IMG/VR virus record: IMGVR_UViG_2671180417_000002
Location: 1 to 10,158 of that record
Length of the DNA stretch: 10,158 nucleotides
Reading direction: 5' to 3' (one strand)
Origin: a virus
Lineage: Duplodnaviria; Heunggongvirae; Uroviricota; Caudoviricetes
The position numbers are program-made. The stretch's first letter is position 1. Every line of letters starts with the position of its first letter. Below are positions 3,001 through 6,000 of this stretch, one piece after another.

Positions 3001-6000
3001 CACAGAGCGATTGTGATGCCTTAAAAGCGATTTATTGAAGTGATATTTGCTTAATCGAAATTCTTTTCTTTGATTCCTGCGGCCCTGATGGCTTTCATTA
3101 CTGCAATTACCGTTTTGTCACGCCCATCCTCATAACCCATCGCATAAGCACCTTCTTCACCATCTTTCCAAAGGTCGTCATTCGATTCGGGCCAGTCGAT
3201 ATCCAGTTCAATAGCAGAGCGCGATGCCTGCCATATCACCCAGGCAAACTCTTTTAATTCATCGTCTCCCGTGAACTGGCTTTTGTCTTTTGACCACCAG
3301 TTTTCAAACTGTCGGTAGCTATCGTTCACTTCCCTCTCCCCCAAATAAAAAGGCCTGCGATTACCAGCAGGCCTGTCATTAGCTCAGTGATGTAGATGGT
3401 CATCTTTTAACTCCATATACCGCCAATACCCGTTTCATCGCGGCACTCTGGCGACACTCCTTAAAAATCAGGTTCGTGCTCACCTTTCCTTCCCGTTCTT
3501 CCCTGGTAGCAAACCGGTAATACACCGTTCGCCAGACCTTACCTTCGATAACCAGAAGACCTGCCCGTGCCATTTTAGCTGCGGCCTGATTTATGCTGGT
3601 TACTGTTGCGCCTGTTAGCGCGGCAACGTCCGGCGCACAGAAGCTATTATGCGTCCCCAGGTAATGAATAATTGCCTCTTTGCCCGTCATACACTTGCTC
3701 CTTTCAGTCCGAACTTAGCTTTAATTTCTGCGATCTTCGCCAGCGCCTGAACACGATTTAGAGGTCTGCCGCCCATGACAGGAAGTTGTTTTACTGGTTC
3801 AGGTATCGTCTCACCACGGTTAATTCGCGCTGTCATACAGGTCAGTTCATCGGCAGCCTTGCGTCGTAATTCCGCGTCAGTCAGCGCATTGGCCCGCATG
3901 TTCTGGTACAGGTTGGTAACCAGCCAGTAGTGCGCGTTCGATTTCCACGGATAAGACTCTGCATCCGGATACAGGCCTCGCTTCCGGCAATACTCGTAAA
4001 CCATATCAACCAGCTCGCTGACGTTTGGCAGTCCGGCGATAACGGATGCTTCTTCCCGGCACCATGCAACAAACTGCCCGGGTGATGGAAGAAATGGTCG
4101 ATTCTGCCGACGGGCTACGCGCATTCCTGCGTTAACCTGTTCCATCGAGGTGATCCCGTTTTCCCGGAAAGCCAGAACCCACTGGCGGCGGATTTCATTC
4201 AGTTCGTTCTGGTCCCGGTTAGCCAGACTCGCCGGGAAAGTTGCCAGTAACTGGCTGAACACACCGTTGATGATCTGCGCTACCTGTTGTACCTGCGGCT
4301 TTTCGTCGTACTGTTCCGGCATGTTGTTGGTGATCCGACGCATCTGCTCACGGTCAAAGTTAACCATCTGTGCGGCGATGTTTTTCATAAATCCACCCCG
4401 TAAATCCAGTCAGTGTTTGTCAGGTCGAGTTTTGGTTTTCCAGCTGTCACGCCAGCCTGTTGCTTGTTACGGTTGATTTCGAGTTGGGTCCACTTGTCGC
4501 GGAGTTTGGCCGGACTTAGCACGTTACCGGACCAGAAGTTGTCCTGGCATGCCCAGCGGAACAGCACGCACATGTCGCGGTGGTTACGTCCGTCACGTTC
4601 ACGCATCAGGCGGATATCGTTAGCCCACCCTGCAAAATTCGGTTTTCTGGCTGATGGTGCGATGGTCTTCACCATGTCAAACATCCACTCTGCGGCGGTC
4701 AGGTCTTCTGCTGTTCCCCACTTGCTGCCGCTCTGAATTGCAGCATCCGGTTTAACCACAGAAAGATCGTTTTCTGGCTGGTCAGAGGATTCGCCAGAAT
4801 TCTCGGACGAATAATCTTTTCTTTTTTCTTTTGTAATAGTGTCTTTTGTGTCCCCCTGTTTTGAGGGATAGCAATCCCCTAATTTGAGGGATGTTTTATC
4901 CCTCGTTTTGAGGGATGTCCCTCATTTTAGGGGAACCTCCCTCGTTTTGAGGGATGCACCATTCTGAGATGTTTTTATTTGGTCCAAACATGCCGCCTTG
5001 CTGCTTGATAATATTCATTCTGACGAGTTCTAACTTGGCTTCATTGCACCGTTTGACAGGTAACTTTGTAATCTCGCTAAGTTGAGAATCGGTGATTCTG
5101 TCCATTGGTTTATTCCACCCATAGGTTTTACGCAGAATGGCAAGCAGCACTTTAAACTGTCGCTTGGTCAGATCTGCGCCTGAATAAGCCTCAATCAGCA
5201 TATTTGATAGTCTGGCGTAACCATCATCGAGATCTGCCACATTACGCTCCTGTCCGGCAAAGTTACTTCTGCCGAAGTTGAGTATTTTTGCTGTATTTGT
5301 CATAATGACTCCTGTTGATAGATCCAGTAATGACCTCAGAATTCCATCTGGATTTGTTCAGAACGCTCGGTCTTGCACACCGGGCGTTTTTTATTGGTGA
5401 GTTCATCAAGCGCATACTTAAAAGCCCTGCTAATCGGACTGATGTCTGATGCCATTCCGAAAGCACACAAGACCGAAGCAATAAATCTCCAGTCCGTTCT
5501 GCTTATCTTCGATTCATGACAGCCAATCATCTTTGCCAGACCGCGCTGGGTAAGCGTTGACAGGTTGATAAGTAAATCTGTTTCTGCGCGATCAACGTCG
5601 CGCTGTGATAGTTTGCTGTAACTTGTTTGTTCCATTTCTTAAGATTTCCAATAGTGAATAGTTAGTTGAAAGGTATGCGTGGAAACGCATATGGCCTTAG
5701 TTGGTCAGATATCTTGGGACTCGCTTTTCAGCGACGTAGGACGAATGTCCGTTGTTACAAAGAGCGGGGTTACTTATGCTGCCAGAAGGTTCTTTTTGCT
5801 TATTTCAAGCAATTCGCTTGCTTGATATTTGCCACCAGAAATCTCTTCGATTTTTGAGGCGTATTTCGTTTTCCCAAAAAACTCAGTCTTAGGGAGGAAG
5901 CCGTTTTTGAGCCACTTATAGACAGCCCTTTCGCTAACTCCACAAGCCTTCGCAACTTCAGGGATGCCGACACCTTTAATCGGCTCATCAAGATTTTGCA

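Follow-up and report, generated by a model that had tools for sequence, protein, structure and literature searches.

The replication gene O of a lambdoid prophage was found to be split by a frameshift within its own origin of replication. The window, which is the whole 10,158-bp stretch of DNA analysed here (IMG/VR virus record IMGVR_UViG_2671180417_000002), covers the early region of this prophage. The split allele is very likely a genuine loss-of-function O, a recently formed O-null prophage pseudogene, that was produced by the deletion of one 20-bp unit from the array of iterons to which the O protein binds. The most likely interpretation is one of ordinary prophage decay, through a lesion of a known type in a well-understood system and without new biology.

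The O gene is located on the minus strand and begins with an ATG at positions 5303-5301. The first stop codon in this frame is a TAA at 4898-4896 (nucleotides 406-408 of O), which is placed inside the iteron array, directly after the third iteron, and closes an open reading frame (ORF) of 135 codons plus stop (O-N, 4896..5303). Translation showed that the rest of O is read in the +1 frame, where no stop interrupts 4921 to 4388 and a TGA follows at 4387-4385; this C-terminal part (4385..4921) comprises 178 sense codons and the stop. The whole pseudogene, as aligned to the O genes of lambda (900 nt) and of phage 933W (939 nt), spans 4385-5303, or 919 nt, which equals 3 x 306 + 1. Its TGA is overlapped by the ATG of gene P (4388-4386), forming an ATGA at 4388-4385. 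An earlier note on this DNA had claimed a frameshift splitting O within the iteron array, a total span that is no multiple of three and an ATGA junction with P; the TAA and the C-terminal homology in the +1 frame bear out the split, and every coordinate held.

The locus presented the features of a lambda-type initiator gene with an embedded origin, namely a PF04492 domain, iterons and an AT-rich region within the gene, and an overlapping P gene (PF06992). The latter is intact (3687..4388, minus strand) and encodes a helicase loader of 233 aa (Pfam PF06992, E = 1.9e-61). The DNA-binding and C-terminal P-interacting domains are not joined in one ORF, as the homology of the C-terminal domain lies in the +1 frame. 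Judged from its sequence, the feature is a pseudogene of the lambda-type O family and not a functional member of it.

The predicted products of the two halves were then compared with intact O. The N-terminal product, O(1-135), is identical to residues 1-135 of 933W O except for G13S and E17G, and it carries no aberrant tail. Its residues 22-115 match the full Pfam family PF04492 (Phage_rep_O; profile positions 2-95 of 95, E = 1.9e-36), with a score of 124.9 bits against a cut-off of 28.7. No sequence relative of O(1-135) was found among solved structures, and the O domain boundaries therefore rest on Pfam and on the literature cited in PMC6022878. In the accepted domain model cited there, iteron binding is assigned to the N-terminal part of O and P binding to the C-terminal part, the two being connected by a flexible linker. 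Codons 5-178 of the C-terminal +1 frame are identical to residues 139-312 of 933W O, and this part matches the PHROG family phrog_277 ('replication initiation O-like') over profile positions 191-317. The C-terminal part has no possible start codon before a GTG at 4759, and this GTG is not preceded by a Shine-Dalgarno sequence. The ORF left over at the C-terminal end of the split gene (4388-4759, minus strand) is matched end to end by a separate PHROG family, phrog_2357 (124 aa, 'unknown function'); this family is a collection of fragments of frameshifted O genes and no real protein family.

The origin iteron array was identified at 4852..4954 (minus strand) by motif matches and a repeat search. 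Five iterons match the motif TCCCYYAAAWNRRGGGR on the minus strand, at 4938-4954, 4918-4934, 4899-4915, 4875-4891 and 4852-4868, against 0 matches expected from 200 shuffles. The repeat search returned a single five-copy family with spacings of 20, 19, 24 and 23 bp in gene order, in agreement with the five iteron-like copies that had been noticed earlier. The AT-rich unwinding region of the origin follows at 4810..4851 (minus strand; alignment columns 473-515 with lambda and 933W), and is the same as that of 933W and one substitution away from that of lambda. Iteron number distinguishes the two reference genes: lambda O (900 nt) has four iterons with spacings of 20, 24 and 23 bp, and 933W O (939 nt) has six with spacings of 20, 19, 20, 24 and 23 bp. 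Six iterons are characteristic of the Shiga toxin (Stx) phages 933W and P27, in which they add 13 residues to O (PMC7466680). The window, with five iterons, does not have this Stx-phage origin of 20, 19, 20, 24 and 23 bp and 13 codons over lambda.

Alignment of the window O with related alleles pointed to a six-iteron parent. It differs from lambda O by 23 substitutions and an additional 19 bp, from 933W O by 2 substitutions and the lack of 20 bp, and from the six-iteron O of E. coli S1-IND-01-A by the lack of 20 bp and 0 substitutions at the 919 shared positions. This last allele is intact (WP_053887611.1; 939 nt, 312 aa) and lies in a closed genome (NZ_CP145657.1). Since the window O is nearest to the 933W and S1-IND-01-A alleles, with the 20-bp gap as the differing feature, the alignments identify it as a Stx-phage-type six-iteron O minus one 20-bp iteron unit. 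The missing 20-bp block is flanked by an 11-bp direct repeat, AAAACGAGGGA, and the break can therefore be placed at any of 12 equivalent cut points (O nucleotides 394-405); the remaining copy of the repeat, located by minimum-substitution cut points and the alignment gap, forms the deletion junction at 4899..4909 (minus strand). Slipped mispairing or short-homology recombination between the AAAACGAGGGA copies of adjacent iterons most likely deleted the 20 bp, which put the TAA directly behind codon 135. The earlier note had instead proposed that a lambda-type array gained its fifth iteron through a duplication of roughly 19 bp. Its arithmetic of +19 bp relative to lambda was right, and the direction of the event was wrong: a sixth iteron was lost, the nearest relative differing by -20 bp. 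A lambda array with a 19-bp duplication is ruled out by the zero-substitution six-iteron parent, as against 23 substitutions from lambda.

The five-iteron array proved very rare. A 141-nt five-iteron query was matched contiguously by 1 of 5,426 complete E. coli genomes, and by none of the 140 phage records with this array type, all of which fell into four- or six-iteron classes. An exact-pattern search for the five-iteron junction gave no match in IMG/VR (with neither junction pattern), in the JGI metagenomes or in the GTDB species representatives. The parental, six-iteron junction was matched by more than 120 IMG/VR contigs. These contigs hold 102 complete O genes, of which 95 were intact, all 900 or 939 nt long, and 7 were disrupted, one of them through a 23-bp iteron duplication. 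The iteron regular expression undercounted two of the IMG/VR O genes, which carry point variants, and their lengths were still 900 and 939 nt.

Several other O alleles with a changed iteron number were identified. A three-iteron O of 872 nt occurs in E. coli O157:H7 F6321 (locus L002, 1501-2372; NZ_CP038369.1), and the same 872-bp match was observed in four other genomes with other backgrounds. A five-iteron O of 923 nt, which arose by a 23-bp duplication of iteron 3, was found in FORC_044 (locus L013, 1201-2123; NZ_CP016755.1) and in other O157:H7 genomes; the FORC_044-type prophage carries a truncated P, and tail-fibre genes adjoin. Both alleles are labelled 'frameshifted' by the Prokaryotic Genome Annotation Pipeline (PGAP). 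A further locus, L126, belongs to a 923/924-nt five-iteron allele class with the 23-bp duplication of iteron 3. Among 24 evenly spaced full-length matches in complete genomes, 3 were of the 923-nt class and 1 of the 872-nt class. The iteron spacings of 19, 20, 23 and 24 bp lie within O and none is a multiple of three, so that the loss or gain of one unit shifts the frame; the intact alleles have four or six iterons because only frame-preserving combinations (20 + 19 = 39 bp) work. On the alleles compared here, O has been inactivated repeatedly in E. coli prophages by single-unit iteron slips. The five-iteron alleles show just 3 substitutions in O, which is too few for a test of relaxed selection on the C-terminal part.

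The split allele can be placed among known systems accordingly. It resembles the Stx-phage six-iteron O and origin (933W) in its iteron types, AT-rich region, N- and C-terminal coding sequence and ATGA overlap with P, and differs in that it is short of one 20-bp unit and that the 312-aa ORF has become a 135-aa ORF with a startless remainder. With lambda O and ori-lambda (ITN1-4; 900 nt, 299 aa) it shares an origin inside O made up of 18-bp inverted-repeat iterons and an AT-rich region, followed by P, and its two distal iterons and AT-rich region are nearly identical to those of lambda; unlike lambda, it has 23 substitutions, two Stx-type iterons upstream, a net gain of 19 bp and a broken frame. 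The lambda ori-minus and O-minus mutants (r95/r96/r98 and the RK-minus ilr class) likewise carry small deletions, either at or close to the iterons or within O; they do not initiate replication and arise spontaneously in prophages that are otherwise lethal on induction (PMC6022878). The r mutations are in-frame and cis-acting and leave the O protein to be made, whereas the window deletion is out of frame and O-null, like the ilr class; in contrast to the laboratory lambda mutants, it is a natural allele in a Stx-type origin. The alleles of the F6321, FORC_044 and E. coli 2003-3014 types share its mechanism class and outcome, and each is flagged 'frameshifted' by PGAP, although other units were lost or gained in the F6321 and FORC_044 types. 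The allele of 2003-3014, a closed genome (NZ_CP101292.1), has 919 nt and five iterons in the same 20/19/24/23 arrangement on another allele background. It shows the same deletion as the window with substitutions on both sides, and is probably an independent event or a recombinant.

The domain model allows the consequences of the deletion to be outlined. After derepression, the prophage would make only O(1-135), which could occupy the iterons and would be unable to recruit P-DnaB. Theta replication from the five-iteron origin would then fail to start, and translation of P may fall as its coupling to O translation goes. An O supplied by another prophage would be expected to rescue replication weakly. 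Complementation by O in trans is weak and is abolished once P is co-expressed (PMC6022878), which makes such a rescue doubtful. The same study reported that spontaneous survivors of prophage induction carry small indels in O. O-null alleles may be favoured in lysogens, in which they would prevent replicative killing upon induction. The prophage is thus probably replication-defective and unable to amplify its genome on induction. The earlier note had named a replication-defective prophage as a possible consequence, which the results support; the same arrangement in a closed genome carries the PGAP flag.

An alternative explanation would be a sequencing or assembly artefact: the genome would truly carry an in-frame array of six or four iterons, whose repeats were collapsed or wrongly joined in the draft assembly. 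The window makes up all of the 10,158-bp contig CYEO01000070.1 of draft assembly GCA_001285285.1, the site is a short tandem repeat, and the contig breaks at both ends suggest several similar prophages within the genome. Within window positions 4850-4960 the five-iteron allele carries CATCCCTCAAAACGAGGGATAAAAC. The deletion junction creates a 13-mer, CAAAACGAGGGAT, which is absent, as are all longer spanning k-mers, from four comparison alleles (two with six and two with four iterons); a graph assembler would therefore have no de Bruijn path by which to generate the junction from four- or six-iteron alleles. Furthermore, seven other contigs encode the same 135-aa N-terminal product without any difference; they were drawn from ENA metagenome assemblies and from Logan assemblies of public runs and hence from different pipelines and samples. 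Six of the seven carry an identical 105-bp five-iteron array (which is identical in loci L005-L007 and L009-L012), and the seventh, L008, ends inside the array just past the stop codon and is the same as the window up to that point. The contigs with the five-iteron allele fall into no fewer than three upstream contexts, which differ in their cII, cro and cI genes, and one group of them also differs downstream, in the nin region. The closed genome NZ_CP101292.1 shows the arrangement as well. From these comparisons we concluded that the five-iteron allele exists in DNA. An artefact, including the collapse of the repeat that the earlier note had allowed for, is very improbable, and an assembly chimera of four- and six-iteron alleles is ruled out by the k-mer analysis together with the independent assemblies. 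Less credible still is that a full-length O is made by recoding in the 23 nt shared by both frames (4921-4899), whether by programmed +1 ribosomal frameshifting or by slippage during transcription. This overlap, GGGACATCCCTCAAAACGAGGGA, is followed by the TAA, and a purine-rich GAGGGA precedes the stop, loosely resembling the Shine-Dalgarno-like element upstream of the prfB shift site. However, no codon of the overlap allows +1 re-pairing of the P-site tRNA (GGA to GAU, CCU to CUC, AAC to ACG), a polymerase would find no run of 5 or more identical bases on which to slip, and a -1 slip reaches a stop after 7 codons; read base by base, the 23-nt overlap contains no slippery sequence. The two-frame arrangement is moreover rare and derived, as shown by the counts for complete E. 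coli genomes, phages and IMG/VR contigs given above, and is not conserved, the intact homologues being single ORFs of 900 or 939 nt. Lacking both a slippery site and conservation, recoding was rejected.

The earlier note had raised the idea of O-N as an origin-binding inhibitor. It is conceivable, although improbable, that the split allele is kept because O(1-135), the iterons and oop together act as an origin-binding or O-titrating inhibitor, and equally improbable that such interference damps the replication of co-resident or superinfecting phages sharing the origin type, Stx phages included. The truncated product is indeed a clean and complete DNA-binding domain without an aberrant tail, the allele is found in several flanking contexts, and the window contains equivalents of ITN3-4 as well as a lambda-like oop region. 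The latter, homologous to the lambda oop antisense RNA, was located at approximately 5314..5393 (plus strand) by alignment to lambda 38599-38675, and the window is near-identical to lambda here. Multicopy plasmids with oop and ITN3-4 block lambda-type replication, and do so with no need for the O protein (PMC3349717). This published inhibition requires plasmid copy number rather than O, and O-N, lying within the pR operon, would be repressed in the lysogen and expressed only after derepression. The rarity of the allele also counts against interference, as do the unrelated frameshifts and indels that hit O in other prophages, as neutral or host-selected decay predicts. We consider it similarly improbable that the locus is a retained module in which SOS-induced O(1-135) competes with, or 'handcuffs', the lambda- or Stx-type origins of other phages; were this true, the module would lower the replication of the target phage and, for Stx phages, the output of toxin. 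A weaker variant would treat iteron-number slippage (6 to 5 to 4) as a crude on/off switch for the replication competence of the prophage.

A few considerations weigh against a recent O-null pseudogene as the explanation. The window's own sequence comes from a 10-kb short-read draft contig, and the failure of replication is inferred. Both halves of O are perfect and the neighbouring genes cII, P, ren, cI and cro seem intact, so there is no independent sign of decay. The intact halves and neighbours fit a very recent lesion, which is probably the case, and are also compatible with retention for some use. In addition, one allele occurs in several flanking contexts and may have been spreading, which a dead replication gene would not be expected to do. 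The several contexts would also be accounted for if the same repeats had undergone deletion more than once, or if prophages had recombined in situ.

The remainder of the window has the gene order of a lambdoid early region. The plus strand carries cI, two ORFs at the rex position, N, an ORF with an Nmad5 domain, cIII, kil and gam, and the minus strand carries cro, cII, O, P, ren and the nin genes, with an antirepressor gene at the end. Downstream of ren, a segment of about 400 bp (window 2932-3334), which holds the window's 92-aa phiTE_015-like ORF, is missing from L006 and L007, two metagenome contigs with the same five-iteron allele; mosaic differences are thus present around an identical O allele. 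Rfam matches at 1128-1326 (minus strand) comprised a C4 antisense RNA (1128-1212), an a1/b1 target element (1274-1326) and isrK (1239-1313). These elements are located directly upstream of the antirepressor ORF (397-1074, minus strand; 225 aa), which has Pfam ORF6N and P22_AR_C domains. On these matches, ant is under antisense control in the style of P1/P7 immI, here within a lambdoid nin region. Between cI and N, two co-oriented ORFs occupy the position of rexA/rexB, at 6911-7231 (plus strand; 106 aa) and 7231-7914 (plus strand; 227 aa). The former has no Pfam, PHROG or PADLOC match, and the latter matches just phrog_14825 (unknown function), along with a weak CCDC90-like Pfam match. Together the two ORFs are a candidate exclusion or defence pair encoded by the prophage. 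The N-cIII interval of the pL operon contains the 207-aa ORF with the Nmad5 domain (8699-9322, plus strand; PF18757, and phrog_1965 of unknown function), and the lambda cIII thermoregulator RNA element, an expected known element, was detected at 9534-9592 (plus strand; RF01804, 88.5 bits), before the 40-aa cIII gene.

The results have direct implications for the annotation of this locus and for the origin type to which it belongs. In line with the PGAP label of the matching allele, the locus should be annotated as a 'frameshifted' O pseudogene and not as two genes. As the origin lies within a coding sequence, the iteron number in O would be able to change viably only by frame-preserving steps. 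For Stx-phage biology, the five-iteron allele would mark a prophage that is probably unable to amplify its genome upon induction.

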